A DNA stretch of 64,000 bases from a phage. This document shows, in pieces, positions 1 through 27,545 of this stretch. The notes beneath the pieces are model-generated. The model was not told the DNA's origin. It was given only the letters and a program-made list of their open reading frames with translations, and did no database searches. Position numbers and translations under genes: made by a program. The stretch lies in NCBI GenBank assembly GCA_019338205.1, contig GCA_019338205.1_4761.1; one strand, written 5' to 3'. The first letter of the stretch is position 1. Every line of letters begins with the position of its first letter.

Positions 1-26
1 AATTTATACAAAGATTAAGATAGTAG

Positions 27-55
27 TTGACAATAAGAAATGGGAGTAGTAAAAT
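27..55 (+). promoter_or_regulatory. sigma70-type early promoter with embedded stem-loop (PeSL-like)
   Basis: TTGACA 27-32, 17-nt spacer, TAAAAT 50-55; inverted repeat GGGAGTA 42-48 / TACTCCC 55-61 spans the -10. Confidence 0.55.
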
Positions 56-86
56 ACTCCCATCTAATCAAGAAGGAGAATCAACA

Positions 87-359
87 ATGCGTAAGATGTT
101 TAAATCCGGTGTGGCCTATGTTTTTAAATCTGAGCAAGCACGTAAAGACTTCCTAGAGGATGACTACGAAGGATTGAAAGATACCTACGAAGTCATCAAG
201 AATGGGTTTACTGTTCTTAAAGTGTCACCTATTGGTTATGTAAGTGAAATCTCGGTTGATGGGAAAACATATACCGCTAAAGACTTTGATCCGCGTTGGG
301 AATTTATGCTTCTTCCGTGTGACCGCATTCTGTTTCGTGCTGTTCAATTAGTGAAATGA
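87..359 (+). CDS. hypothetical protein, repeat-domain family member A1 (GFxVLKV...DG.xYT motif)
   Basis: ATG at 87 preceded by AAGGAGAATCAA leader; track ORF 27..359 trimmed to first ATG; paralogous to 374..934, 998..2176, 2231..2725. Confidence 0.65.
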   Translation: MRKMFKSGVAYVFKSEQARKDFLEDDYEGLKDTYEVIKNGFTVLKVSPIGYVSEISVDGKTYTAKDFDPRWEFMLLPCDRILFRAVQLVK

Positions 360-373
360 TAGAGGATTATATT

Positions 374-934
374 ATGGTACAGAAAACATACAAAGTATAT
401 TCGGTTAAGTCACCCAATGACGCTGTTTTTGAACGAGGTCGTTACTATACTTTCCGTAGTGCAGAAACAGTCGCAGAATTTATCAAACGATGTCCGCAAC
501 ATAATAAGTTCTTGTATGACGTGCTTTGTAACGGCTTTAAAGTTCTCACTGTTGATGCGATGGGGCGTGTGTATCTGGTAGAAACTCATGAGTATGAAGG
601 TGCATCTGTTCTGATTGCTGCAAACGAGCGAAAATACTTTAAACGCATCACTAAAAAGCAGTTTGAAGAAATGAAACCAATTAAGAAAGAAGAATCTCTG
701 GAAGATCTGATTAACTTGTTTGCGAAGTCTTCTTTGGTATCATTGACGCTGGAAGATTTTAGCTTTGATAATCAGCTATACTTTAAAAATGCCGATGACT
801 TGAAAGATTTTCTGATTGAGAATAAACCTAAGCTAGAAACCTATATCAAAGGTGAGATTAAGCGCATGGAACATCAAGCAAAATATAGCGCAGATAAAGT
901 AGCTGAACTGAAAGAGATCCAAAGGTCACTTTAA
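374..934 (+). CDS. hypothetical protein, repeat-domain family A2 (domain ends NERKYFKRI, Lys/Glu-rich C-terminal tail)
   Basis: ATG 374 after GAGGATTATATT leader; shares NERKYFKRI and GFKVL motifs with 998..2176. Confidence 0.65.
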   Translation: MVQKTYKVYSVKSPNDAVFERGRYYTFRSAETVAEFIKRCPQHNKFLYDVLCNGFKVLTVDAMGRVYLVETHEYEGASVLIAANERKYFKRITKKQFEEMKPIKKEESLEDLINLFAKSSLVSLTLEDFSFDNQLYFKNADDLKDFLIENKPKLETYIKGEIKRMEHQAKYSADKVAELKEIQRSL

Positions 935-937
935 CGC

Positions 938-966
938 TTGACATGATGAAACGGGAGTAGTAAGAT
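938..966 (+). promoter_or_regulatory. PeSL-like early promoter
   Basis: TTGACA 938-943, TAAGAT 961-966, GGGAGTA/TACTCCC inverted repeat around the -10. Confidence 0.55.
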
Positions 967-997
967 ACTCCCATCTAAACAACGAGAGGATTATATT

Positions 998-2176
998 ATG
1001 GCTAAATTCTTTGAAGGGCATTACTACGCATTCCGTGAAGGCGGTAAAGATGAGTTTCTAGACTTTTCTCGCTATTCAATTACTCTGACCGATACTTCGC
1101 GCCGTGGTCATATTCGGGTTGCTGAAATTGTAGAAAAGGGCTTTAAAGTATTAGAAAAAGATGACCACGGTCATGTTGTTACTATTGAAGCTGGAGATGT
1201 AGTTTATTCCGCTGAGGATATCGTTTATTATTGGGCTACTATGATTATGCACAATGAGCGCAAATACTTTAAACGCATCTCAAAAGAGGCATACGAAGCG
1301 ATGAACAAGAAAGAGGATGCAATGCCGACTTACTTTGAAAAAGGTAAATGTTATTCGTTTACCCCGGAAGGTTTGCAAGAATTTAAGCGATTCTGGGGAG
1401 AGCATGATCCAGAGCACAAAGAAGCCATGAAACTTGTTGATTTTGTCGAATATGGCTTTTTAGTTGAAGAAGAATTGCACGGATCGGCTACCATGATCAC
1501 CGCGAAAGGTGAAACTGTTAAGGCGGATCGTTTTTGTGACCAATGGAATTGCTTGTTTGACGGTAGCGAATTTGAATACTTCGCGGAAATCACGCGAGTT
1601 GAATATGTCCGTATGCAAGAGCGTGGTCAGAGATTTAAAGTAGGCGAACGATACAAGCCAAATCCACATAATTTGCCTCATTGGTTTAATACTGAAACCG
1701 TATCCAGTCATGTTATTGAAATTATTAAAACGCTGGAACATGGATTTAAGGTAACTAAAGTAGATTCTTTCGGAAGTGTTGACGCTGTTGAAGTTGATGG
1801 TGTAGAATATACTCCTAAATCTTTCGGGCTTTGCTGGTATCACCTGATCAGCAATGATGAACGTTATTACTTTGTTGAACTGCCATCTGAACCGGAAGAA
1901 GCACTAGAAGATCATGATCATCTGTCTGAACTGGTTAAGCTGTTTGGTGATCTGCCGGATGGTGTAGGGGTGGCGGTAATGGGTGAAGGTGCTGTTATCC
2001 GAAACCTGAAAGACTTTAAAAAGTTCTTGATTGACATGCTGCCTAAACTTGATGATAATCTCGATAAAGATATTCAGAATCGCAAAGAAATTGTTAAAGA
2101 TACTGAAAAAGAGATCGAAGAGATTCGAGCAATTCGCCAGAAGGTGAAAGCAGTAAAGAAAAAAGTTAGTTCTTGA
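998..2176 (+). CDS. hypothetical protein with three tandem copies of the family repeat domain plus coiled-coil tail
   Basis: 392 aa; internal repeats ending NERKYFKRI / NDERYYFVEL; GFKVLEKDDHG, GFKVTKVDSFG motifs; GAGGATTATATTATG leader. Confidence 0.7.
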   Translation: MAKFFEGHYYAFREGGKDEFLDFSRYSITLTDTSRRGHIRVAEIVEKGFKVLEKDDHGHVVTIEAGDVVYSAEDIVYYWATMIMHNERKYFKRISKEAYEAMNKKEDAMPTYFEKGKCYSFTPEGLQEFKRFWGEHDPEHKEAMKLVDFVEYGFLVEEELHGSATMITAKGETVKADRFCDQWNCLFDGSEFEYFAEITRVEYVRMQERGQRFKVGERYKPNPHNLPHWFNTETVSSHVIEIIKTLEHGFKVTKVDSFGSVDAVEVDGVEYTPKSFGLCWYHLISNDERYYFVELPSEPEEALEDHDHLSELVKLFGDLPDGVGVAVMGEGAVIRNLKDFKKFLIDMLPKLDDNLDKDIQNRKEIVKDTEKEIEEIRAIRQKVKAVKKKVSS

Positions 2177-2200
2177 CATGCGAAGGGAGTATGCTATAAT
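2173..2200 (+). promoter_or_regulatory. PeSL-like early promoter
   Basis: TTGACA 2173-2178, 16-nt spacer, TATAAT 2195-2200, flanked by GGGAGTA/TACTCCC. Confidence 0.6.
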
Positions 2201-2230
2201 ACTCCCACTTAACAACGAGAGGATTATATT

Positions 2231-2725
2231 ATGTGGGTACAAGATGTTTGGTATACTGTAACTAAAGAAAACCTTGACGCATTCAGCGACCAATCTTGCG
2301 CTAATAGCTCAATTGCTGATATTCTTGAAGATGTGTTTGGTGGTGTAGATAAAATTCGTTTTAAAGTTGTTGTTAATTCTATGGGGTGTGTAAAAGACCT
2401 ATATACCGATGATAAAGACCTTGATCTTAAACTTCATCTTCGTATTGATAATGCAAGTCTAGGTTATTGGTTTGAAGATAACGAGTATGAATACTTCACA
2501 CCAGCAATTAAAGTTTTTGCAACTAAACTGGAAGCTGTACTAAATCTCCGACCAATTAATGTTGACGGTTACATTATCAAAAATATTCAGGAGTGGGATT
2601 CATATCTAGATCAGATTATCCGAAATAGTAAGCAGGAAGCCGCTAATAAGAAGCGACAAGAGATCAAACAACTGAAAGCTGAACTGGAAGCGGCGGAAAA
2701 AGAATTAGCAGAACTGGTAAAATAA
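2231..2725 (+). CDS. hypothetical protein, repeat-domain family A4 with coiled-coil C-terminus
   Basis: 164 aa; GAGGATTATATTATG leader; C-terminal KQLKAELEAAEKELAELVK. Confidence 0.65.
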   Translation: MWVQDVWYTVTKENLDAFSDQSCANSSIADILEDVFGGVDKIRFKVVVNSMGCVKDLYTDDKDLDLKLHLRIDNASLGYWFEDNEYEYFTPAIKVFATKLEAVLNLRPINVDGYIIKNIQEWDSYLDQIIRNSKQEAANKKRQEIKQLKAELEAAEKELAELVK

Positions 2726-2733
2726 CTATCAAC

Positions 2734-2758
2734 GAGCGGGAGAAATCCCGCTTTTTCA
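2734..2758 (+). terminator. rho-independent terminator-like hairpin
   Basis: GAGCGGGA-GAAA-TCCCGCT stem-loop followed by TTTTTC. Confidence 0.55.
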
Positions 2759-2769
2759 TAGGTGATACA

Positions 2770-4632
2770 ATGGAAAAACTAATCAAAGACATTACAGAGA
2801 TCGCAACGGGTAAAGAAAACGAAGTAAGCAAAGAGAACGCGAACAAAGACGCGCGAACATTCCCGACACGTCGAGATCTGATTGCTGGTGCTGTGTCTAA
2901 ACAGATTGCTAAAACCGTGTTACCTGAGCACATCTATAAAGCGCATGTAGACGGTGATATTCATTATCATGATATGGATTATGCACCCGCTATGCCGTTT
3001 ACTAACTGCTGTCTTGTTAATCTAAAAGACATGTTAGAGAATGGTTTTAAATTGGGTAGCGCACAAATCGAAAGTCCGAAATCAATCGGCGTTGCTTGTG
3101 CTGTAACCGCTCAAATTATCGCACAGGTGGCAAGTCATCAATATGGCGGGACCACAATTGCAAATATCGATCAGGTGTTAGCGCCGTATGTTGAGAAAAC
3201 ATATCATAAACACCTTGCTGATGCCGAAACCTACGGAATCAAAGCTAATACTCTCTATGCACAAGAGAAGACAGAAAAAGAAACGCTAGACGGATATCAG
3301 GCGTTGGAATATGAGATCAACACTTTGTTCTCTACCAACGGTCAAACACCTTTTGTGACTTTAACCTTTGGTATGGGTACTAGCTGGGAAGAAAAACTGA
3401 TTCAGAAAGCGATCTTGAAAGTTAGAATTAAAGGTTTAGGTAAAGATGGTATAACTCCGGTGTTTCCTAAGCTGGTGATGTTCTTAGAAGAAGGATTAAA
3501 CCTTAAACCGGAAGATCCGAACTACGACATTAAGCAACTTGCATTGGAATGTTCTAGTAAGCGTCTTTACCCTGATTATATCTCTGCGAAGAATAACCGT
3601 AGTATCACCGGATCTAGTGTTCCGGTTAGCCCGATGGGTTGTCGTAGCTTCCTGGGTGTGTGGCATAATGAGAAAGACGAGGAAGTATTAGACGGACGTA
3701 ATAACTTAGGTGTTGTGACTCTGAATCTTCCGCGTATTGCCCTTATTGCCTCGCGTCGTGCTGGTAAAGCGTCTGTAATGCGCAGAATTGAGCTATTCGA
3801 ACAAGAGCTAGCTAATCGTATGCCTATTTGCTTTGATGCGCTCATGAGTCGCGTAGACGCTTTAAAAGGGGCTAAAGCCAATGTTGCTCCGGTGCTGTAT
3901 ACAGAAGGTGCATTTTTCCGTATTCATCAAAACGATGAAATTTTGGAAGTGCTGAAAGATGGTCGCGCTAGTATCTCTCTTGGATATATTGGTTTACATG
4001 AGGTATTGAGCGTCCTGTTTGGTGTTCATCCGTTTGATTCGGAAGATGCGCAGCGATACGGTAAACATATTCTTAAGATCTTGCGTCATTATACTGAAAA
4101 ATGGAAGGATGAAACCGGACTTGGGTTTAGTCTTTACGGTACGCCAGCCGAGAGCCTTTGCTATCGATTTAATCGACTGGATCGAGAGCAATTTGGTATT
4201 GTTAAGGGTGCTACCGATAAAGACTGGTACACTAACTCATTCCACCTTGACGTAGACCGGAAAGTCACACCATTTGAGAAAATCGACTTTGAGAAAGATT
4301 ATCACTGGCTGGCGTCCGGTGGCATGATCTCTTATGTTGAGTTCCCAGACATGAAAAACAACCTGAAAGGTCTTGAAACTGTAGTAGACTATGCAATGGA
4401 TAAATTGCACTACTTCGGTGTTAATACTCCTTCTGATGTATGTCATGTATGCGGATCTAATAAGGAAATGAGAGCGACCGAGTCTGGTTTTGTTTGCCCT
4501 GATTGCGGCAATGACAATCTGGAAAAGATGAATGTTATCCGTCGCGTTAGTGGATATCTTGGATCTGTTGATCTGCGTCCATTTAACCACGGGAAACATT
4601 CCGAGATGGTAAACCGCGTTAAGCACATGTAA
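2770..4632 (+). CDS. nrdD: anaerobic ribonucleoside-triphosphate reductase (class III RNR), uninterrupted
   Basis: 620 aa; C-terminal glycyl-radical motif RVSGYLG and CxxC zinc ribbon (CHVCGS...CPDCG); same position as T4 nrdD. Confidence 0.93.
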   Translation: MEKLIKDITEIATGKENEVSKENANKDARTFPTRRDLIAGAVSKQIAKTVLPEHIYKAHVDGDIHYHDMDYAPAMPFTNCCLVNLKDMLENGFKLGSAQIESPKSIGVACAVTAQIIAQVASHQYGGTTIANIDQVLAPYVEKTYHKHLADAETYGIKANTLYAQEKTEKETLDGYQALEYEINTLFSTNGQTPFVTLTFGMGTSWEEKLIQKAILKVRIKGLGKDGITPVFPKLVMFLEEGLNLKPEDPNYDIKQLALECSSKRLYPDYISAKNNRSITGSSVPVSPMGCRSFLGVWHNEKDEEVLDGRNNLGVVTLNLPRIALIASRRAGKASVMRRIELFEQELANRMPICFDALMSRVDALKGAKANVAPVLYTEGAFFRIHQNDEILEVLKDGRASISLGYIGLHEVLSVLFGVHPFDSEDAQRYGKHILKILRHYTEKWKDETGLGFSLYGTPAESLCYRFNRLDREQFGIVKGATDKDWYTNSFHLDVDRKVTPFEKIDFEKDYHWLASGGMISYVEFPDMKNNLKGLETVVDYAMDKLHYFGVNTPSDVCHVCGSNKEMRATESGFVCPDCGNDNLEKMNVIRRVSGYLGSVDLRPFNHGKHSEMVNRVKHM

Positions 4633-4637
4633 TTTTC

Positions 4638-4669
4638 AGCCGATCCGAAAGGGTCGGCTTTTTCGTTTT
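4638..4669 (+). terminator. rho-independent terminator
   Basis: AGCCGATCCGAAAGGGTCGGCT hairpin followed by TTTTTCGTTTT directly after the nrdD stop. Confidence 0.7.
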
Positions 4670-4675
4670 GGGGTG

Positions 4676-4703
4676 TTGACAACCTGATTAGCTAATGTAT
4701 AAT
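4676..4703 (+). promoter_or_regulatory. sigma70-type early promoter
   Basis: TTGACA 4676-4681, 16-nt spacer, TATAAT 4698-4703. Confidence 0.6.
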
Positions 4704-4732
4704 GCTCACATCGAAAACAACGAGAGGACAAC

Positions 4733-5275
4733 ATGATGATGATGTTTTGTGTACTGAGCAAAGAAGTTAAACTTCGTAAACTGGAAATTGGCGATGGTGT
4801 TGTTGTTAAAATGCACGCTAGCACATTGGCTAGTTTTAATTTAAAGGAAAGTTTTTTTATTAGAGGAACGGTGGTTAATATCTGCTGGAGTCAATGCGAA
4901 GGAATCCGTAGCTTTTGCGTAATTGACGATGATAATAACCTGTATGTGATTCGCTATCATAATAATTCTGTATTGGTCTATACCGACAATTCACGAGAAT
5001 TATATACTCTTGAATTTGTTAAGCGTACTGATTGCGACCTATTTGTTCGTGCTTATGAAGAAGATGGCTGTTTTGCGACTGAAACAGAAACAAATGAATA
5101 TGTTCCTATGGAAGTAGGGGCAGAAATTAAACACAAGATCACGGATCGTATTTTTAAGGTTGTGGCGGTTGCTCATACTCAATTTGTAGCGCAAGCGCCG
5201 GATGAAGAATTTATTATCTACAATATTGGTAATGCAAGTTCTCATTTTCATAATGTACTATATCGCGACCTTTGA
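4733..5275 (+). CDS. hypothetical protein
   Basis: 180-aa ORF with GAGAGGACAAC leader; no recognisable motif. Confidence 0.6.
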   Translation: MMMMFCVLSKEVKLRKLEIGDGVVVKMHASTLASFNLKESFFIRGTVVNICWSQCEGIRSFCVIDDDNNLYVIRYHNNSVLVYTDNSRELYTLEFVKRTDCDLFVRAYEEDGCFATETETNEYVPMEVGAEIKHKITDRIFKVVAVAHTQFVAQAPDEEFIIYNIGNASSHFHNVLYRDL

Positions 5276-5292
5276 TAATGTGTGAGGTGAAT

Positions 5293-5814
5293 ATGAAATC
5301 ATTAAACCGTAAGCGTAAAGCACAACGACACAAAGAACGAGCTAAAAAGATTGCTATTGAACTCTGTGAGCGTGAGGATAGCTATTTGTCTACTGGTCGT
5401 TTGTATACATTCCATGCATTGATTGATGGTAAGCCAGTGTTGCATAATCATGATTGCTTGGCACTGTTTCACGAGATCGAACCAATCCATCGTGAATGTG
5501 ATGACAACAAAGCAAAAGGTCAATATTTCCTTACGTGTTCGTGTGGTCATGCTGGTTGTGCTGGATATTGGGAACCTGTTACTATCCGTGAGAAAAATGA
5601 TACCATTCAATGGGTCGCCCGTACCCGCGATGGTTATGATAAAGGTGCTGATGGTACTGGCGATAACGTAGTTTACTTTAATCGTGATTGGTATTATATG
5701 GCGCGATGTATGATCCTGTTTTATCTTGACTCGATGCCGTATGAATATTTCAGTTTCCAGAATGGGACCGAACTGACAGGGAAGGAATGGTCTGAATACA
5801 TTCGAAAAATTTAA
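5293..5814 (+). CDS. hypothetical Cys/His-rich protein
   Basis: track ORF 5272..5814 trimmed to ATG 5293 after GAGGTGA; contains CSCGHAGCAGYW. Confidence 0.55.
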   Translation: MKSLNRKRKAQRHKERAKKIAIELCEREDSYLSTGRLYTFHALIDGKPVLHNHDCLALFHEIEPIHRECDDNKAKGQYFLTCSCGHAGCAGYWEPVTIREKNDTIQWVARTRDGYDKGADGTGDNVVYFNRDWYYMARCMILFYLDSMPYEYFSFQNGTELTGKEWSEYIRKI

Positions 5815-5823
5815 AATAAATGC

Positions 5824-5852
5824 TTGACGGGGATCGCGAGATCCCCTATACT
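5824..5852 (+). promoter_or_regulatory. PeSL-like early promoter
   Basis: TTGACG 5824-5829, palindrome GGGGATC-GCGA-GATCCCC in the spacer, TATACT 5847-5852. Confidence 0.55.
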
Positions 5853-5894
5853 ATATTCATCAAGACGAGATACAACTTTACAGGAGAATCAAAT

Positions 5895-6047
5895 ATGTGG
5901 ACTTTACTGATTTGGGAAACTGAAAACGCACAAGTAGAAATCCGTGAATACGAATACCTAAGCCCAGCTTATCTATTAGCATCTCGCGGTGGTTACTATA
6001 AAGCGCAGATTGTAAACGAGTTCGGGGTGATTGAATATGAGTTCTGA
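5895..6047 (+). CDS. small hypothetical protein (50 aa)
   Basis: ATG 5895 after AGGAGAATCAAAT leader; track ORF 5820..6047 trimmed; overlaps the nrdG start. Confidence 0.5.
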   Translation: MWTLLIWETENAQVEIREYEYLSPAYLLASRGGYYKAQIVNEFGVIEYEF

Positions 6048-6540
6048 TACATACGGCAAACTACGCTATGCCGATATTAAAGATTGTGATATGGTTAACG
6101 GTGAGGGAGTGAGAGTCTCCCTTTACGTTACCGGATGTTCACACGCATGTGATGGTTGCTTTAATGCTAGCCTACTCAATCCTAAGAACGGGGAACCATT
6201 CACCGATGATACAATGGGATTGATTCTGGATCTGCTTAGACCTGATTTTATTCAGGGGCTAACATTCTTAGGTGGCGATCCACTGTATAAACGCAATTTA
6301 AAGGGTGTACAGCGGATCATCGATGAAGTAAAATCATGGATGCCAAATAAAGATATTTGGCTATGGTCTGGTTATACCCTTGACCAATTGAATGATGAGC
6401 AAAGAAAAATTGTAGAATCAGTTGACATGTTCATTGATGGGCGTTATATTAAAGATATGCCAACGAAGAAGCCGTGGCGGGGGTCTGACAATCAAGTACA
6501 ATACAAGATTGTTAATAGTATTCCAGTGAAAATTATTTGA
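6037..6540 (+). CDS. nrdG: anaerobic RNR activating protein (radical SAM)
   Basis: CxxxCxxC motif CSHACDGC near the N-terminus; about 167 aa; follows nrdD as in T4. Confidence 0.88.
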   Translation: MSSDTYGKLRYADIKDCDMVNGEGVRVSLYVTGCSHACDGCFNASLLNPKNGEPFTDDTMGLILDLLRPDFIQGLTFLGGDPLYKRNLKGVQRIIDEVKSWMPNKDIWLWSGYTLDQLNDEQRKIVESVDMFIDGRYIKDMPTKKPWRGSDNQVQYKIVNSIPVKII

Positions 6541-6550
6541 GGTGATTATT

Positions 6551-7078
6551 ATGAAATGGGAAGTTGGTAAAACTTACAAGATTGAATGCGAAGCGTCGAA
6601 AGCCGAACTAACTAAATTTTCGTCGTCTATTAACAGATGTATTGTTGACTTGTTGGCTGGTCGCCCGTTTAGGGTAGAAGACCTTGACGATGATGGTGAT
6701 GTTAGAGAAATTACTGTTATTGGTAGTAATTTCGACTCTATGACGTTAAAAGAATCCCCTATTGGCTGTTCCGGCGTGTGGTTTTGGTCGGGTGAGCGTC
6801 GTTTCTTTACCGAAGTTACTATTGAACCTAAGATTCCAGATTCGGAAGAAAAAGAAGAAGACCTAACTTTAGAACGCCTGGGTCTGCTTATGGAAGCCTA
6901 CGACATTCAGTTGATCGATAAGATGGGGTTACATAATAGCATTGCCAAAATTACTACCCTAGAAGGTATTAAGAGCGTACTGGATGGTATGCCTAGCCGG
7001 ATCGGTGCTATCCGAGAATACAAACAAACGCGCGACCGTATGATCCAATTAGAATCACGTATCAAAAATGAGAGATGA
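6551..7078 (+). CDS. hypothetical protein, repeat-domain family B1 (MKWEVGKTY... start)
   Basis: ATG 6551; N-terminal MKWEVGKTY shared with 7083 and 7560 ORFs; RPF...DG...W(F)...ERRFF motif; C-terminal coiled coil. Confidence 0.65.
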   Translation: MKWEVGKTYKIECEASKAELTKFSSSINRCIVDLLAGRPFRVEDLDDDGDVREITVIGSNFDSMTLKESPIGCSGVWFWSGERRFFTEVTIEPKIPDSEEKEEDLTLERLGLLMEAYDIQLIDKMGLHNSIAKITTLEGIKSVLDGMPSRIGAIREYKQTRDRMIQLESRIKNER

Positions 7079-7082
7079 TATT

Positions 7083-7547
7083 ATGAAATGGGAAGTTGGT
7101 AAAACCTATGCGTGGAAAGATGTAAAAGATGCAAACCAATTTTTTAAATGGTATGATGTTGATTATTTGAAATATCTGAGATTACCGTTTAAAGTTGCGT
7201 CGGTTGATGCGAAAAAAGGATACGTGCGGTCTGTATATCTTCATGATGGAACTTATATGAGTTCAACCGATGTAGGTCTATCTTGTTGGTTTCTGGATCA
7301 TGACCGTAGCAGATTTGAAGAAATTATTATTCCAGAAGAATCTAAATTAATTGATCTTCTCAAGTTGGCGATGGATAATTATAAAATCCGCTTTGAATGC
7401 AAATCACATGCGGCTATCGGTGCTAACGCATTGCGTCATATCTCCAGTTTTGAAGAGTTGAAAGATTTTCTTGACAAAATGCCGGAAAGAGTGCAAGCTA
7501 TACAGGAAGCAGAGAAAGCATTAAACGAACTTGATAAAATCGGTTAA
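7083..7547 (+). CDS. hypothetical protein, repeat-domain family B2
   Basis: MKWEVGKTYAWKD N-terminus; C-terminal KDFLDKMPERVQAIQEAEKALNELDKIG tail. Confidence 0.65.
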   Translation: MKWEVGKTYAWKDVKDANQFFKWYDVDYLKYLRLPFKVASVDAKKGYVRSVYLHDGTYMSSTDVGLSCWFLDHDRSRFEEIIIPEESKLIDLLKLAMDNYKIRFECKSHAAIGANALRHISSFEELKDFLDKMPERVQAIQEAEKALNELDKIG

Positions 7548-7559
7548 GGGGAATATATT

Positions 7560-8384
7560 ATGAAATGGGAAATTGGTAAAACTTACACCTGGAAAGACGA
7601 AAACGCTAAAACTGAGTTTATTACTAACGGAGAAGGTGTTCTTTCTCCACTTAACAGCGATATTAGTGCAGCTATTGGTGACAAGCCATTTACCATCATC
7701 GAGATCGAGGGTAACGGTTGGATTGATGCAATAGAGCTAGACGGTGTTTATCATACGGCGAAAACTGCTACAGGAAAAGACATTTGGACTGCAACATATT
7801 TCTTTAGTCCATTCGATAGAAAATTCTTTCGTGAAGTTGAAGAAGTTCCCCAGAAATGGGAAGTTGGTAAAACTTATACTTGGAAAGATGTGAATGCTAT
7901 GACAGACTTCTGCCATTATGCTGAAAACGCATCTAACCTTAATTATGTTATTGCACGAGCAATAAATTATAGACCTTTTACTGTTAAAAATGTTCGTCCA
8001 TGTGGGCAAATTGATGTAATTGAAATTGATGGTAAAGACCATACTCTAATGAGCGCAACCGAAGATAGAGACCATAAAGGAACTAGCTGGTTTATTGATT
8101 CTGATAGAAAATTCTTTCGTGAAGTAGAAGAATTGGAAGTTATAACCACTGATTCTAAGATCGTTGGACAGTTGAAACGTCTGTTTAGTAGTCGTTACGG
8201 CCTGACAATGGTTAAATTTGGCGAAGCAAATGAAGGTAAAACCTTTGAACGTTTCGATGATTTCATTGCGGCACTTGACAAGATGGATGAAATCATGCAA
8301 GATCGCCAGAAGATTAAAGACCTTCAAGAAGACATTAAACGTCGTGAAGTTGAATTTTTGATTGGTAAAGAGCGAGGTTGGTAA
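7560..8384 (+). CDS. hypothetical protein with two tandem copies of the family domain
   Basis: MKWEIGKTYTWKD...RKFFREVEEV then QKWEVGKTYTWKD...RKFFREVEEL internal duplication; 274 aa. Confidence 0.7.
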   Translation: MKWEIGKTYTWKDENAKTEFITNGEGVLSPLNSDISAAIGDKPFTIIEIEGNGWIDAIELDGVYHTAKTATGKDIWTATYFFSPFDRKFFREVEEVPQKWEVGKTYTWKDVNAMTDFCHYAENASNLNYVIARAINYRPFTVKNVRPCGQIDVIEIDGKDHTLMSATEDRDHKGTSWFIDSDRKFFREVEELEVITTDSKIVGQLKRLFSSRYGLTMVKFGEANEGKTFERFDDFIAALDKMDEIMQDRQKIKDLQEDIKRREVEFLIGKERGW

Positions 8385-8385
8385 T

Positions 8386-8868
8386 ATGTTTGTTGCTGGC
8401 GTGACCTATCAGTGGAAAGATAAGAAAACGAGAGAAGATTTTGCAAACTTTAGCGTTGCAAATGATGCAATAGCAGAGTTTATAGGCGACCGTCCATTTA
8501 AAGTTATCGCATTTGATCACCATGCATCGGATGTTGATTATGTTTCTGCGATTGAAATTGATGGCACGGTATACACCTGCTGCAATGTTGATGATGTACG
8601 GGAATACGCGCACAACTGGTTTTTGCAATCAGAAGAACGTCATTTTAAAGTGGTATCGGCAGAACTGACCACTGATGCAATGTTGGAACAATTTTTCAAC
8701 AACTACGAAGTTTCTGTACGTCGATACGGTGAAGAGGAAGTATTTAAAATTGATGACTATAATCAGTTTAAACGAGTATTCGCCACTAAGATCCAACGTG
8801 ATATTGAACGCGAGAAGCGCATTAAGGAACTGGAAGAAGAACTAGAAAGATTAAAGGCTGAGAAATGA
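8386..8868 (+). CDS. hypothetical protein, repeat-domain family B4
   Basis: track ORF 8362..8868 trimmed to internal ATG; VTYQWKD...RPFKV...IEIDG.VYT...WF..EERHFKVV; C-terminal ELEEELERLKAEK. Confidence 0.6.
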   Translation: MFVAGVTYQWKDKKTREDFANFSVANDAIAEFIGDRPFKVIAFDHHASDVDYVSAIEIDGTVYTCCNVDDVREYAHNWFLQSEERHFKVVSAELTTDAMLEQFFNNYEVSVRRYGEEEVFKIDDYNQFKRVFATKIQRDIEREKRIKELEEELERLKAEK

Positions 8869-9134
8869 TCGAGATATACGGTATACCGAAAGAGGCTTAT
8901 CATTGTTATGGTTGTATTAGTGCAATGAAGCTACTGGATGATCTGGGTATTCCGTATACACTTAAACCAGTATTCAAGCCGGTCGGGGTTGACATTATTC
9001 CCGACCGTGATATGATTGAAGAACTGGCGGGGAGGCTAAACTCAAAGAGCCTCCGGTTTGTATACCCCCAGATATTCATTGACAACGAGCACATTGGAGG
9101 CTATAAAGAACTGAGGGCGATTTATGATTATTGA
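8865..9134 (+). CDS. glutaredoxin/NrdH-like redoxin
   Basis: 89 aa; CxxC (HCYGC) near the N-terminus; sits between nrdG and gp55 where T4-type phages carry a glutaredoxin. Confidence 0.6.
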   Translation: MIEIYGIPKEAYHCYGCISAMKLLDDLGIPYTLKPVFKPVGVDIIPDRDMIEELAGRLNSKSLRFVYPQIFIDNEHIGGYKELRAIYDY

Positions 9135-9282
9135 GAATTTAGTTTCGGTGTTCATTATTGCTTTATTTGCTATAATGACTTTACCGTTGAAGAAGTGTAA
9201 GCACTGTAACGGAACAGGATTGCGTGGTGATGGGTGTTGCGCTCATTGTCATGGATCTGGTAAAGTAAGTATCATTAAGTAA
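9124..9282 (+). CDS. small membrane-anchored DnaJ-type zinc-finger peptide (about 52 aa), not on the ORF track
   Basis: hand translation MIIENLVSVFIIALFAIMTLPLKKCKHCNGTGLRGDGCCAHCHGSGKVSIIK: hydrophobic N-terminus plus two CxxCxGxG repeats; coordinates approximate. Confidence 0.4.
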   Translation: MIIENLVSVFIIALFAIMTLPLKKCKHCNGTGLRGDGCCAHCHGSGKVSIIK

Positions 9283-9303
9283 TTCTTGAGTGAGGAATAT
9301 ATT

Positions 9304-9591
9304 ATGTTAGTACACAATGCAATCGCACACATGGTTTATTCTCGATTTGGGCGCATGGAAGAAATCAATATTACCGACGCAGATTTAGATCTGATGCAAG
9401 TCGAAGGCCAGACATATCTGAAAAATAACGGCGTGAATATCGGTAAAGCGCGTGTGCGTGAATTGTTAGTTGAATATATTCTCTCTGAATTTGGCATTAG
9501 TGCTTTCGGTGTGAAAGAGATTGCACCTAAGCGCGAAATTTCTGATAAAATGATCAAGAAATGCCAGAAAGCACGACGTAAGGGTTTCTAA
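9304..9591 (+). CDS. hypothetical protein
   Basis: ATG 9304 after GAGGAATATATT; track ORF 9286..9591 trimmed. Confidence 0.55.
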   Translation: MLVHNAIAHMVYSRFGRMEEINITDADLDLMQVEGQTYLKNNGVNIGKARVRELLVEYILSEFGISAFGVKEIAPKREISDKMIKKCQKARRKGF

Positions 9592-11060
9592 TGAAGATTG
9601 AAACATTAATTGCATTGCCAGCGGCGGGGAAAACTGATGCTATACTTTCCCACGTCCTAGAGACAAAAGAAAAAGCGGTTATTGCTTCGCCATCTCGTGT
9701 TTTAAGTGAACAATCTTACAATAAGTTTAAAAGAATGGGCGGTCGTGCTGTCTTGATTGATAGCACAAGACTAAGAAGCCTTAAGACAGTGCAAGCGTCG
9801 ATAATGCAATCAGTTAAAGACGGTGCTGATGTGATATTCATTACACATACAGCGTTATCTAATATGGAACGTTCAAAAATGTTTGGTGAATATGCTCTTT
9901 ACATTGATGAAGTTCCTCAACTGGTTGAATTTAATGAGTATCCGTTTAAGTCTAATCTTGAACTTATCACGAAGCATTGCGAACCAATCGCCGACGAATC
10001 GGAATGCCTACAGAACTTAGTTCTAAAAGACTCTGAGAAGGCCGTTATCAAAGAAAAGATAGAAAGTGCAAAGGATGGTACTGATATGATCGATTCTTCT
10101 CTTAGAGGGCTTTATGAGGCGTTATTAGAGAAGAAAATCAACGTTATGGTAAAACATAACGAAGGACACCGGAAGAATGGGTCGAAAATTGTTTTCTTGA
10201 ACGATAACAAACACGGTACGTGGGGAGACTTTAAAAAGGTTACGATAGCATGTGCAAATCTCTTTGATACATATAGCGGGAAGTATCTACGATACTATGC
10301 AAATTGCGATTTTGTTCCGAGTGCGCTAGAATCCAGACTATATTTCAAAGAGTATAAAAATACAGATAGAGTTAATATCATCCTTATGACGGACTCTGAA
10401 CGATGGTCGCGTCACCAGTCAGAAACAAACAATACCTTTGAACGTCTTGTTGATATGGTTAAAAATGAATGTGGCGATGACTTCATTTATACCGTGAATC
10501 GGGACCGAGAAGCGTGTACAAATGGTATTGGTGAGCGGATACCTTACGGATCTTATGGTCTTAACTCTTACATTCATCATAAAAATGTTGCTGTGATGTT
10601 CAGCTTTAACCCGCAACGATGGGAGATTGATATTTTAAAAGGTCTTGCTAATAGTTGTGATCTCCCGACAAACGAGTTTTTGAAAGCGCGTCATGTGTCT
10701 GATTATCTGGAACCAGCATTTCAATTATGTTTGCGTTGTAACCTGAGAGACAACGAGAGCAAGGAGAATGTTAATCTATATGTTCCTGATTTGGCGTTGG
10801 TAGATTATCTAAAAACGTTTCTACCTGATGCCAATGTAATAACAGACCGAATGATTCCGCTAGAATGTGGTGAGCGTAAAGGGCGAAAATCATTTAAAAA
10901 GATGTTCGATTTTAACGAGCAAGAGAATGCAAGATTTAACGGATTTAAGTACCGCATGAAGAAAAAGGGAAAAACTCTTGATCCGTCTGACGGTGAATCT
11001 GTAGAGATGGTTAGAGTGTGGATAACTAAGCAAAGAAAGTATAATGGTAATGGGGAATAG
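9591..11060 (+). CDS. P-loop NTPase of unknown function (helicase/ATPase-like)
   Basis: 489 aa; Walker A-like ALPAAGKT at residues 9-16 and Walker B-like ALYIDEVPQ about 100 aa later. Confidence 0.7.
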   Translation: MKIETLIALPAAGKTDAILSHVLETKEKAVIASPSRVLSEQSYNKFKRMGGRAVLIDSTRLRSLKTVQASIMQSVKDGADVIFITHTALSNMERSKMFGEYALYIDEVPQLVEFNEYPFKSNLELITKHCEPIADESECLQNLVLKDSEKAVIKEKIESAKDGTDMIDSSLRGLYEALLEKKINVMVKHNEGHRKNGSKIVFLNDNKHGTWGDFKKVTIACANLFDTYSGKYLRYYANCDFVPSALESRLYFKEYKNTDRVNIILMTDSERWSRHQSETNNTFERLVDMVKNECGDDFIYTVNRDREACTNGIGERIPYGSYGLNSYIHHKNVAVMFSFNPQRWEIDILKGLANSCDLPTNEFLKARHVSDYLEPAFQLCLRCNLRDNESKENVNLYVPDLALVDYLKTFLPDANVITDRMIPLECGERKGRKSFKKMFDFNEQENARFNGFKYRMKKKGKTLDPSDGESVEMVRVWITKQRKYNGNGE

Positions 11061-25977: not shown

Positions 25978-26613
25978 ATGATCGCTAATGCTTTACCGCC
26001 AAAATGGATCGTAAGTCGCTTTTATACTCTCAAGGAAGGTAACGCACCTGATGGTCGTCCGATCCGAGATCTGTTTCTGGAGATGACTACAGCCGAAGCA
26101 CAGTTTTATAATGATCTGACAGACGATAAGCCATTTCTCGTAAATTCGGTGGACCTTGATGGCAATGTCACATCAATCATCACACATGGTGGGGGAGTGA
26201 AAAATATTACTTCTCTGCGTGATCACGGTTGGGAAATTGCTTGTGTATTTCCTGCGGATGTACGCGGATTCTTTGATGAGGTATCTGATATTAAAGTAAA
26301 TGCACTGGAACCATATGACGAGATCCCACCACTGAAAGAAGAAAAAGAGTTGACACCGGAAGATGTAGATAGTACACTACACCCCGACCTATTTAAGAAG
26401 ATTAGCGGTTTATGGACTGTTACCCTGTATCCAACCGCATTAGGTCTAGAATTGGGTATGCCAACTTATTCTGATATTGATAACTGGAATAAGAGCATTG
26501 ATAAAGATGTTGAAAAACAGCGAAATAATGCTAAAATGCAACTTAAAGAGAAACGCAAAGATCTTGAACGACAACTGAAAGAAACAAAACATTTGCTTTC
26601 TACATTCGCTTGA
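25978..26613 (+). CDS. hypothetical protein
   Basis: 211-aa ORF with C-terminal Lys/Glu-rich region. Confidence 0.6.
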   Translation: MIANALPPKWIVSRFYTLKEGNAPDGRPIRDLFLEMTTAEAQFYNDLTDDKPFLVNSVDLDGNVTSIITHGGGVKNITSLRDHGWEIACVFPADVRGFFDEVSDIKVNALEPYDEIPPLKEEKELTPEDVDSTLHPDLFKKISGLWTVTLYPTALGLELGMPTYSDIDNWNKSIDKDVEKQRNNAKMQLKEKRKDLERQLKETKHLLSTFA

Positions 26614-26643
26614 TCTATAATGAAACTCTAAGGAGACTATATT

Positions 26644-27021
26644 ATGAAAAATATGATTACGCCGGAAGATGTAGCATTCAAAACCGCATTCAACGGAGAT
26701 ATTCTTATTTTTATCGACGGTAAACACGCCGGAATGATTGAACCGGAAGGTCGCTGGGGTGTTGCTGAACTATATAACGTGGCGGGTGTAGAAGGTCATA
26801 AAACAGCACTTGTTTTCTTGTCAGATAAAGATCAAATGCGTCGAAAAATTGCTGCGCTCTATAATGAAGCAGTATATTTCTACGAACCGTTTCATCGTAT
26901 TAAAACGATCTCCCGCGTGACTCGAAAAGATGTTAATGCTTGTGTTATCAAGATTGTAGAGAATCAGGATAAACTGACGAAAGACCAGATTGTTGACTTA
27001 CTGAAAGAGATTATTCTATGA
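26644..27021 (+). CDS. hypothetical protein
   Basis: 125-aa ORF with AAGGAGACTATATT leader. Confidence 0.6.
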   Translation: MKNMITPEDVAFKTAFNGDILIFIDGKHAGMIEPEGRWGVAELYNVAGVEGHKTALVFLSDKDQMRRKIAALYNEAVYFYEPFHRIKTISRVTRKDVNACVIKIVENQDKLTKDQIVDLLKEIIL

Positions 27022-27194
27022 TTGGATTTAAACAGTTTGTTGAAGAAAATAAACTCAAAGAAGATATGACCGCTGGCGATGCTGGCGGCAATCCTGAGAA
27101 GATCGCAGCAGGTGAAACGAGCGGATCTATTACCAATCGTGGACCTAGTGTAGCGGGTAAAGAAAAACGCAAAAAGGAGAAAGACGGTGCTTAG
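27018..27194 (+). CDS. small hypothetical protein (58 aa, Gly/Lys-rich), not on the ORF track
   Basis: hand translation MIGFKQFVEENKLKEDMTAGDAGGNPEKIAAGETSGS...; ATGA overlap with the upstream stop. Confidence 0.4.
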   Translation: MIGFKQFVEENKLKEDMTAGDAGGNPEKIAAGETSGSITNRGPSVAGKEKRKKEKDGA

Positions 27195-27201
27195 TATCAT
27201 C

Positions 27202-27345
27202 ATGTTTATCGTTGGCTTGCTGTCCGCTATTGTCGGTGTTGTTGTTTTCGGATTATCTGGACACAAAACAAAAACAGAAAAGTTATCCGAGATCACAATG
27301 TATGTTGGTGTAGTTCTCATTCTGTTGTCGGTGGCGCTTAAATGA
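27202..27345 (+). CDS. small two-helix membrane peptide (47 aa), not on the ORF track
   Basis: hand translation MFIVGLLSAIVGVVVFGLSGHKTKTEKLSEITMYVGVVLILLSVALK; two hydrophobic segments. Confidence 0.45.
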   Translation: MFIVGLLSAIVGVVVFGLSGHKTKTEKLSEITMYVGVVLILLSVALK

Positions 27346-27545
27346 TTACGATGAAATGTCTTAAAAGCACATATGCACTTTTTGAAGCCGGAAAAGAATA
27401 TGAATTTACAGAACTTGATTCGGTAGGCCGTTTTCGTGTATTCTCTTACACATCGCCAGATGGTAGTGTCTACAAATTTGGCTTAGATGAAAACGGAGAG
27501 AATGAAAATGAAAGTGTAGGAACTTTCATGAAATTTGAGCTATAA
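27342..27545 (+). CDS. hypothetical protein
   Basis: 67-aa ORF immediately upstream of gp61. Confidence 0.5.
   Translation: MITMKCLKSTYALFEAGKEYEFTELDSVGRFRVFSYTSPDGSVYKFGLDENGENENESVGTFMKFEL

Follow-up and report, generated by a model that had tools for sequence, protein, structure and literature searches.

Genes around nrdD and nrdG

The DNA analysed here, referred to below as the window, is a stretch of 64,000 nucleotides of a phage genome (NCBI GenBank assembly GCA_019338205.1, contig GCA_019338205.1_4761.1). Near its start, all on the plus strand, lie gp49, four open reading frames (ORFs), nrdD, three ORFs, nrdG, four ORFs and nrdH, in that order. The four ORFs before nrdD and the four after nrdG, here named genes A to H, are the subject of this analysis. 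An earlier reading of this DNA from the sequence alone had proposed that the eight share a domain of about 90 amino acids (aa), present in at least 11 copies, which it did not recognise. We find that all eight, together with a ninth gene (Dc2) further along the window, very likely belong to the GoF/Frd.2/MotB.1 family of T4, whose members are small early proteins not essential to the phage, and represent an expansion of it by paralogues. The repeated domain is the N-terminal beta-barrel domain of that family.

The window originates from an RB49-like coliphage of the genus Krischvirus, which is placed within the Straboviridae and outside the subfamily Tevenvirinae. Over its first 9.2 kb it aligns with 59 phage records at nucleotide identities of 90-99%, every one of which is an RB49-like Krischvirus coliphage. 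Genes A to D and E to H are the RB49 coding sequences RB49p060-057 and RB49p051-048, respectively. Two of the eight are already labelled 'goF mRNA metabolism modulator' in RefSeq, and gene C has carried the name frd.2 in GenBank since the original RB49 record. Coordinates of all features are collected in Table 1.

Table 1. Family genes, regulatory and repeated elements, and neighbouring genes of the window (PeSL, promoter-early stem-loop; RBS, ribosome-binding site; z, folding score against shuffled controls)
Feature	Position	Strand	Description
Gene A, 90 aa	87-359	+	Lone GoF-like beta-barrel domain (about 93-353) without C-terminal tail; RB49p060 orthologue
Gene B, 186 aa	374-934	+	17-aa leader, one domain (about 422-676), C-terminal module ending in Lys/Glu-rich helix
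Gene C, 392 aa (RB49 frd.2)	998-2176	+	Three tandem domains (1001-1306, 1328-1621, 1628-1912), C-terminal module, Lys/Glu-rich helix
Gene D, 164 aa	2231-2725	+	One divergent domain (2231-2533) and Lys/Glu-rich helical tail
Gene E, 175 aa	6551-7078	+	One domain (6551-6829) and E/F/G/H-type C-terminal module with helical tail
Gene F, 154 aa	7083-7547	+	One domain (7083-7352) and E/F/G/H-type C-terminal module
Gene G, 274 aa	7560-8384	+	Tandem domains (7560-7850, 7851-8144), E/F/G/H-type C-terminal module, long helix (residues 232-271)
Gene H, 160 aa	8386-8868	+	One domain (8386-8676) and E/F/G/H-type C-terminal module
Ninth member, 211 aa (RB49 'Dc2')	25978-26613	+	One domain (26002-26307), acidic linker, Lys/Glu-rich tail
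PeSL-type early-promoter and stem-loop cassette	27-67	+	Upstream of A; promoter 27-55, 11/12 consensus matches; z -4.3
PeSL-type cassette	938-978	+	Upstream of C; promoter 938-966; z -3.5; repeat families D3, D4
PeSL-type cassette	2173-2212	+	Upstream of D; promoter 2173-2200, 12/12 consensus matches; z -5.1
Four near-identical direct repeats, 26-32 nt	6547-6578; further starts at 7079, 7556, 7847	+	RBS and first codons (MKWEVGKTY)
Direct repeat, 30 nt, family D8	7815-7844	+	97% identical to 8103-8132; encodes DRKFFREVEE, which ends each G domain
nrdD (non-family)	2770-4632	+
nrdD terminator	4638-4659	+
Strong promoter after nrdD terminator	4676-4703	+
Three non-family genes	4733-5275, 5293-5814, 5895-6047	+	Unknown function
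nrdG (non-family)	6037-6540	+

The repeated domain

The 11 units within the eight ORFs align over about 95 residues, with Y10, F21, F44 and F90 nearly invariant. The motifs that characterise a unit are (K)(W/F)exGktY, a conserved Phe in a short helix, (P)FkV..vd..G.V..I and E(R)(K)(Y/F)F.E(V). Pairwise identities between units are low (14-50%), and a Pfam scan of the eight proteins and the ninth gave no match (E <= 1). These two observations would favour the view that the shared motif is a compositional or chance similarity among unrelated small ORFs, with no domain family behind it. However, this view deserves next to no credence. All-versus-all BLASTP among the eight proteins gave E values down to 4e-11. 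To avoid circularity, we also built a profile from the units of all proteins but one and searched it against the 614 six-frame ORFs of the window; in this leave-one-out design every protein was recovered (E 6e-33 to 5e-6), while the best non-family ORF had E >= 0.015. PHROG profiles, which are independent of the alignments made here, give the same result, including the three stretches in gene C and the two in gene G, and the structure model described below is confident and consistent with it. A search of 1.84 billion representative proteins returned only short, phage-sized proteins in addition to six long repetitive ones. Chance similarity is thus already refuted by BLASTP, the leave-one-out searches, the profile matches to T4 proteins and the large database search.

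At the level of single genes, the leave-one-out E values were 1.5e-15 for A, which matches phrog_16115 and more weakly phrog_622; 4.5e-14 for B, which matches phrog_8944 ('goF mRNA metabolism modulator'); 5e-6 for D (phrog_15067); 3e-14 for E (phrog_5347); 1.3e-13 for F; and 4e-12 for H, the stop codon of which overlaps the nrdH start. The three copies within gene C are each significant on their own (i-E 7e-10, 3.9e-4 and 3.6e-9), and phrog_622 matches three separate stretches of the protein. In a database of 5.8 billion proteins the only matches to gene C were orthologues of at least 84% identity. The two domains of gene G, which are 50% identical to each other, were also recovered singly (3e-15 and 1e-17), and phrog_622 again matches two stretches. 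The tandem arrangements and the minimum of 11 copies put forward in the sequence-only reading are thereby borne out, as is its picture of genuine paralogues with repeats inside single proteins, located in a plastic region of a T4-type phage genome.

The ninth member was overlooked in that reading. It lies between gene 41 (helicase) and gene 61 (primase) and is matched by the profile of the 11 units with E 1.3e-7. The window as a whole therefore holds nine family genes, eight of them around nrdD-nrdG, and 12 domain copies. The same profiles found no further member in positions 1-141,000 of RB49, and the rest of that genome is covered by the window, so that nine genes and twelve copies are also the total for an RB49-type genome.

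RB49-type phages carry three additional ORFs between genes 41 and 61 (window positions 25978-27545), the first of which is Dc2. In T4 these two genes are adjacent. The position of Dc2 next to gene 41 is curious, given that the T4 mutant protein GoF(D25Y) acts on the gene 41 transcript.

Relationship to the GoF/Frd.2/MotB.1 proteins of T4

The GoF/MotB.1/Frd.2 family was defined in 2025 from three T4 proteins as having an 'LSm-like fold' (Kim et al. 2025, PMC12152347). A profile built solely from the 11 units of the window detects T4 GoF with E 2e-11, Frd.2 with E 2e-4 and MotB.1 with E 0.01, and the translated T4 goF visibly fits the motif. These matches, together with the published family, give a name to the domain that had gone unrecognised. 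The PHROG collection points the same way: phrog_622 holds both T4 GoF (5e-38) and Frd.2 (4e-46), and it also detects C (1e-20), G (8e-19) and E (5e-11) of the window. When a profile of all 12 units was searched, without a word index, against the 1.84 billion representative proteins, just 115 clusters were found at E <= 1e-3. Among them are the cluster representative of T4 GoF (P0211, 65% identical to GoF) and a relative of Frd.2 (P0229). Two domains occur in about 15 of these clusters and three domains in two. The six long proteins found in the same search (900-1700 aa) repeatedly match only about 30 profile positions and were treated as unrelated repeats.

The window proteins agree with the family in sequence, fold, nearest fold neighbours, architecture and phage range. 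Regarding architecture, an N-terminal domain is followed by a flexible linker and a variable C-terminal domain in all but gene A, which consists of the domain alone. T4 GoF (comC-alpha; 141 aa), a small, acidic, early protein, resembles the window proteins in its homologous N-terminal barrel domain of about 90 residues and in the order of domain, acidic linker and small C-terminal module. It differs from them in having a single domain and no Lys/Glu-rich helical tail, and no similarity was detected between its C-terminal module and those of the window.

T4 Frd.2 (128 aa; Pfam PF03197 FRD2) likewise has a homologous N-terminal domain, yet only one, and its gene adjoins frd/td in T4. By BLASTP it aligns to the third domain of P0056, a gene C orthologue 88% identical to C, with E 5.7e-4; this similarity explains why RB49 gene 058 was named frd.2. 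The Pfam FRD2 model gave no match to the window proteins even at E <= 1. T4 MotB.1 (119 aa) belongs to the same family (Kim et al. 2025, PMC12152347) and represents its most distant branch: its match to the window-only profile is weak, a mixed profile recovers its orthologues, and its C-terminus differs, being MotB-like (PF17613) in longer orthologues. The T4 motB.1 product (L003 2792-3151) is shorter than most orthologues (143-166 aa; P0032-P0052), the additional C-terminus of which matches the end of PF17613. T4 MotB.1 may accordingly be a truncated copy.

Fold of the domain

The second domain of gene G was modelled with AlphaFold2 from 43 aligned sequences, giving a pLDDT of 89.3 and a pTM of 0.81. 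The model is a bent five-stranded antiparallel beta-barrel in which strand 1 is followed by two helices, strands 2-4, a loop with short helices and strand 5. Its nearest solved folds are the SH3-like barrels of FeoA and IdeR, the same neighbours that were reported for the T4 proteins (Kim et al. 2025, PMC12152347); SH3-like, Tudor and KOW domains are also among its structural neighbours. None of the Foldseek matches in the Protein Data Bank (PDB) was significant, FeoA being first with E 0.14, and a profile search of PDB chain sequences was also without a significant match (best E 0.26). Against predicted viral structures, Foldseek gave 76 matches at or below E 1e-3 in phages of the T4 type. 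One is named GoF and one Dc2, and several phages contribute more than one protein. The hosts of these phages are Escherichia, Edwardsiella, Proteus, Pectobacterium, Morganella, Klebsiella, Citrobacter, Enterobacter and Aeromonas.

Membership in the FeoA (Pfam PF04023) or DtxR type was considered and rejected, as neither a Pfam match at E <= 1 nor a PDB sequence match was found. The resemblance is one of fold only: identity to the SH3-like domains of FeoA and DtxR/IdeR/SloR (CATH 2.30.30.90) is just 7-18%, and the window domain lacks their metal-binding histidines. A relationship to Hfq, Sm and LSm proteins is suggested by the published name 'LSm-like' and by the mRNA effect of GoF(D25Y), and the domain does share with them a small, bent, five-stranded antiparallel beta-sheet. 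It is nevertheless not an Sm, LSm or Hfq domain proper. The Sm topology of an N-terminal helix followed by five strands was not found, neither structural match list has Hfq or Sm proteins at its top, and neither conserved RNA-binding residues nor a basic surface could be identified, the conserved columns being hydrophobic apart from N32, E86 and E92. For GoF, AlphaFold3 gave no confident hexamer (Kim et al. 2025, PMC12152347). Because Hfq and Sm proteins are not among the top structural matches, 'SH3-like, FeoA-like barrel' is a safer name for the domain than 'LSm'.

C-terminal modules and tails

The full-length model of gene G contains two confident barrels, a low-confidence C-terminal module and a terminal helix of 40 residues (232-271). 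With a pTM of 0.42 it implies no confident packing of these parts, and residues 191-229 have pLDDT < 50. The C-terminal modules of E, F, G and H are clearly homologous and that of C matches them marginally (E 0.002), while B aligns by BLASTP with a stretch of C that reaches from the third domain through the C-terminal module. No such similarity was detected in the C-termini of D, the ninth protein or the T4 proteins. A single C-terminal domain common to all members is thus unsupported, and the modules are of several types.

Coiled-coil tails rich in Lys and Glu had been ascribed to all eight proteins. A predicted helical tail of this composition is indeed found in every member except gene A, which is a bare domain. 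Hydrophobic residues occupy 0.50-0.67 of the a/d heptad positions in these tails, compared with 0.29-0.40 overall, a pattern that fits a coiled coil without proving it. The helix probably drives self-association, and T4 GoF and MotB.1 appear on gels as monomer and dimer (Kim et al. 2025, PMC12152347).

Promoter cassettes and direct repeats

Genes A, C and D are each directly preceded by a cassette of about 60 nt in which a sigma-70 consensus promoter (10-12 of 12 matches) is combined with a stable stem-loop. The stem, GGGAGTA/TACTCCC, spans the -10 hexamer, and the stem-loops have predicted energies of -12.5 to -16.2 kcal/mol and z of -3.5 to -5.1 relative to shuffled controls. The leader and ribosome-binding site of the C cassette (975-1000) are common to the D cassette. 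A related copy at 4676-4715 has kept the promoter and has no stable stem-loop (z -0.1), and a further consensus promoter lies upstream of E within the end of nrdG (6422-6450). A search of positions 1-9300 with Rfam gave no RNA family.

The three cassettes correspond to the PeSL elements described in RB49 and phi1, which combine strong early promoters with a terminator-like stem-loop and serve as recombination sites (Arbiol et al. 2010, PMC2839356). Like those elements they are intergenic, carry a stem-loop over the -10 box of a sigma-70 promoter, and stand upstream of genes of unknown function. nrdD is among the loci listed as PeSL-associated (Arbiol et al. 2010, PMC2839356). PeSLs are regulatory and recombination elements and are not part of the protein family. 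Judging from these promoter matches, the family genes are probably transcribed early.

The E-H block is organised differently, having no PeSL between its genes and repeated coding 5' ends in their place. Here the ribosome-binding site and the first nine codons are repeated nearly exactly four times (families D1 and D2; 81-97% identity), marking the 5' ends of genes E and F and of each of the two G domains, and the ends of the two G domains are repeated as well (family D8). One-domain versions of gene G exist in related phages, with junctions in either repeat; in the variant P0003 the junction falls within the DRKFFREVEE motif. In phage KFS-EC gene E has been lost precisely, and A and B are also missing, with nrdD and nrdG kept. 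One-domain variants of G and the loss of E in KFS-EC are the products to be expected from recombination between such repeats. The 5' repeats are the likely substrates for the KFS-EC deletion of E and for one-domain G variants such as P0001. On this reading the family has grown, and continues to be rearranged, through homologous recombination between sequences repeated at 5' ends, at domain ends and in promoter cassettes, and the short 5' repeats and the cassettes probably drive the gain and loss of genes and domains.

Variation and selection

Orthologues from nine Krischvirus genomes were compared by the pooled Nei-Gojobori method. The family genes have dN/dS values of 0.15-0.44, compared with 0.04-0.07 for nrdD, nrdG and nrdH. 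They are under relaxed purifying selection and not under positive selection, which was rejected because no gene has a pooled dN/dS as high as 0.45; a sample of nine recombining sequences that are closely related offers too little power for tests of selection at single sites. The term 'diversifying' that had been applied to the family does not hold in this sense. It does hold for allele classes, gene content (as in KFS-EC) and domain number, all of which vary.

Alleles of B, D, F and H are only 62-77% identical at the amino acid level, beside nrd genes that are at least 97.8% identical. The window allele of B is just 70-77% identical to the other Krischvirus alleles sampled, while D, F and H each fall into two classes that are 62%, 64% and 69% identical, respectively. 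The high dS of B, D, F and H is due to the existence of two allele classes for each, and the dimorphism is a cassette-like replacement of alleles. The array is nonetheless conserved overall, 58 of the 59 related genomes covering at least 80% of the region.

Chromosomal location and neighbouring genes

At the positions that the family occupies in T4, RB49 has no member. Both the goF/motB.1 position, near gene 39 in T4 (between 39.2 and dexA in RB49; L011 5021-5971), and the frd.2 position (between frd and gene 32; L014 38437-41000) are empty of family genes. The family thus occupies different chromosomal locations in the two genera. It was stated to be confined to the Tevenvirinae (Kim et al. 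2025, PMC12152347). Because the phage of the window is a Krischvirus and lies outside that subfamily, the family is wider than the title of that report states. Named Foldseek matches were nearly all from T4-type phages of enterobacteria and Aeromonas, with one in phAPEC8.

Association with nrdD is not restricted to Krischvirus. A metagenomic phage contig (L012, 3887-9566) carries at least five two- or three-domain members in a row, followed directly by a SegE-type endonuclease gene (segE) immediately upstream of nrdD. A megablast of this locus against the phage collection gave no close relative. Forms with tandem domains and linkage to nrdD therefore recur outside Krischvirus.

This recurrence could be taken to mean that the proteins assist NrdD, NrdG and NrdH in anaerobic nucleotide metabolism as accessory factors. 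Eight of the nine genes flank nrdD-nrdG-nrdH, the unrelated L012 contig also has its members upstream of segE and nrdD, and frd.2 adjoins frd, td and nrdA in T4. We nevertheless regard such a role as very improbable. T4 has goF and motB.1 at other sites, near genes 39 and motB, and the ninth gene of the window is likewise at another site, between genes 41 and 61. KFS-EC retains nrdD and nrdG without three of the family genes, and the nrd genes evolve far more slowly than the family genes do. Moreover, nrdD is a known hotspot for PeSLs and mobile endonucleases, so that co-location may only reflect a permissive insertion site.

As for the other neighbours, the genes at 4733-5275 (phrog_14838) and 5293-5814 (phrog_8242), between nrdD and nrdG, are outside the GoF family. 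Their allele dimorphism among Krischviruses is deeper than that of the family genes (71% and 47% aa identity). In phage JSE nrdD (L005 3070-5692) is interrupted by a homing-endonuclease gene, while nrdD of the window is uninterrupted. Further downstream, just before the late sigma factor gene 55, an ORF of 489 aa (9591-11060; phrog_2467, unknown function) has a P-loop-like GKT motif near its N-terminus.

Possible function

T4 GoF is an abundant early protein that is dispensable in the laboratory. Mutants in goF rescue T4 on rho-defective hosts, which has been a puzzle since the 1970s, and the wild-type protein is without known activity. In the presence of GoF(D25Y), a reporter RNA with the gene 41 leader has a longer half-life, an effect that is post-transcriptional and independent of Hfq (Kim et al. 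2025, PMC12152347). The experimental data on the family thus point to mRNA stability, and they do so for a mutant T4 protein only. When T4 was evolved in a gut-on-a-chip, a goF variant that lacks 21 bp in frame within the acidic linker reached a frequency of 72%, and no phenotype of this deletion was detected in one-step growth (PMC9271167).

From these data and the architecture described above, a role for the window proteins can be suggested. The genes would be transcribed early from strong sigma-70-type promoters, three of them in PeSL cassettes. Each protein consists of one to three SH3-like barrels of about 95 residues; except in A, these lead into a linker, a small C-terminal module and finally a Lys/Glu-rich helix through which the protein may oligomerise. 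Such oligomeric adaptors would intervene in RNA metabolism after transcription by shielding or redirecting certain mRNAs of phage or host, either through contact of the barrel loops with RNA or, likelier for the acidic copies, through binding of a host RNA-processing protein, and different paralogues would have different targets. We offer this reading, of early self-associating adaptors in post-transcriptional RNA metabolism that more plausibly bind a host RNA-processing protein than present a common RNA-binding face, tentatively and with less than even confidence.

Several observations weigh against such a role. A net negative charge (pI 4.4-6.5) is found on ten of the window's 12 domain copies, those of A and B alone being basic (pI 8.7 for the domain of B), and across 139 family domains the conserved positions are the hydrophobic core together with N32, E86 and E92, with no conserved basic residue. 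Acidic domains and the absence of conserved basic residues argue against a shared RNA-binding surface. The SH3-like barrel is in any case a generic fold, which mediates protein-protein contacts as often as contacts with nucleic acids. The promoters were recognised by consensus matching only, and the tail helix has modest confidence in the monomer model. Furthermore, wild-type GoF and MotB.1 had no clear effect on the reporter (Kim et al. 2025, PMC12152347).

The same charge pattern would suit a different explanation, in which the paralogues are protein-binding inhibitors or decoys of host factors, including anti-phage defence proteins. The barrel would then offer a variable binding surface, the tail would provide avidity, and the expansion would be the outcome of an arms race. 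Beyond the acidic copies and the missing basic residue, the SH3-like, Tudor and KOW neighbours of the fold are typical protein-interaction modules. The genes appear to be early and accessory, with presence/absence variation, deep allele dimorphism and dN/dS above that of the neighbouring enzymes, and their surroundings include PeSL cassettes by which genes of unknown function are shuffled. However, no member has been linked to any defence system, the dN/dS below 0.45 in every gene gives no overall signal of positive selection, the array is nearly intact in 58 of 59 related genomes, and the lone functional datum concerns mRNA. As the main rival reading, an inhibitor or decoy function is in our assessment only a little less probable than the adaptor role. 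The sequence-only reading had suggested a host-interaction or anti-defence function, for which the analysis gave no evidence either way.

Returning to adaptors of RNA metabolism, the two goF suppressor mutations, D25Y and G84R, can be placed on the window copies with no alignment ambiguity, as the D25 site is three residues after a conserved Phe and the G84 site two residues before an invariant Phe. The residue equivalent to D25 is aromatic in half (6/12) of the window copies, compared with 14% of 124 other family domains, and that equivalent to G84 is Lys or Arg in 6/12 as well, compared with 30% family-wide. Both features are combined in C1, E, G2 and H. We considered whether D25Y and G84R restore a family consensus and rejected this as a general explanation, since frequencies of just 14% and 30% across the family are those of variable surface positions. 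The pattern is nonetheless a lead for choosing natural paralogues with possible GoF(D25Y)-like activity.

A bolder extension would be that tandem-domain members are natural, constitutively active counterparts of GoF(D25Y), and that C and G, joined through their tails as two times three or three times two barrels, build Hfq-like six-barrel platforms that bind selected mRNAs and stabilise them. We consider this very improbable. If true, it would describe a phage-encoded RNA-chaperone system made from covalently linked barrels.

Significance for the family

The domain itself was known already, and the window proteins are new members of a poorly understood family that show modest architectural variation. 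The published description of the family contains no mention of RB49, Krischvirus, paralogs or duplication, and uses 'tandem' only in the name of a reporter assay (Kim et al. 2025, PMC12152347); our literature search found no other paper naming T4 GoF and Frd.2 together with MotB.1. New in relation to that description are the three-fold expansion, from three genes in T4 to nine; proteins with two or three covalently linked domains; tails rich in Lys and Glu; occurrence outside the Tevenvirinae; the recurrent position next to nrdD; and the gain and loss of genes and domains mediated by repeats.

For annotation, it follows that eight 'hypothetical proteins' can be assigned to the GoF/Frd.2 family, and that 'mRNA metabolism modulator' should not be used as an established function. 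For experiments, nine members with twelve domain copies provide a much richer natural set, which includes covalent multi-domain forms as well as copies that already carry the residue types produced by both goF suppressor mutations.

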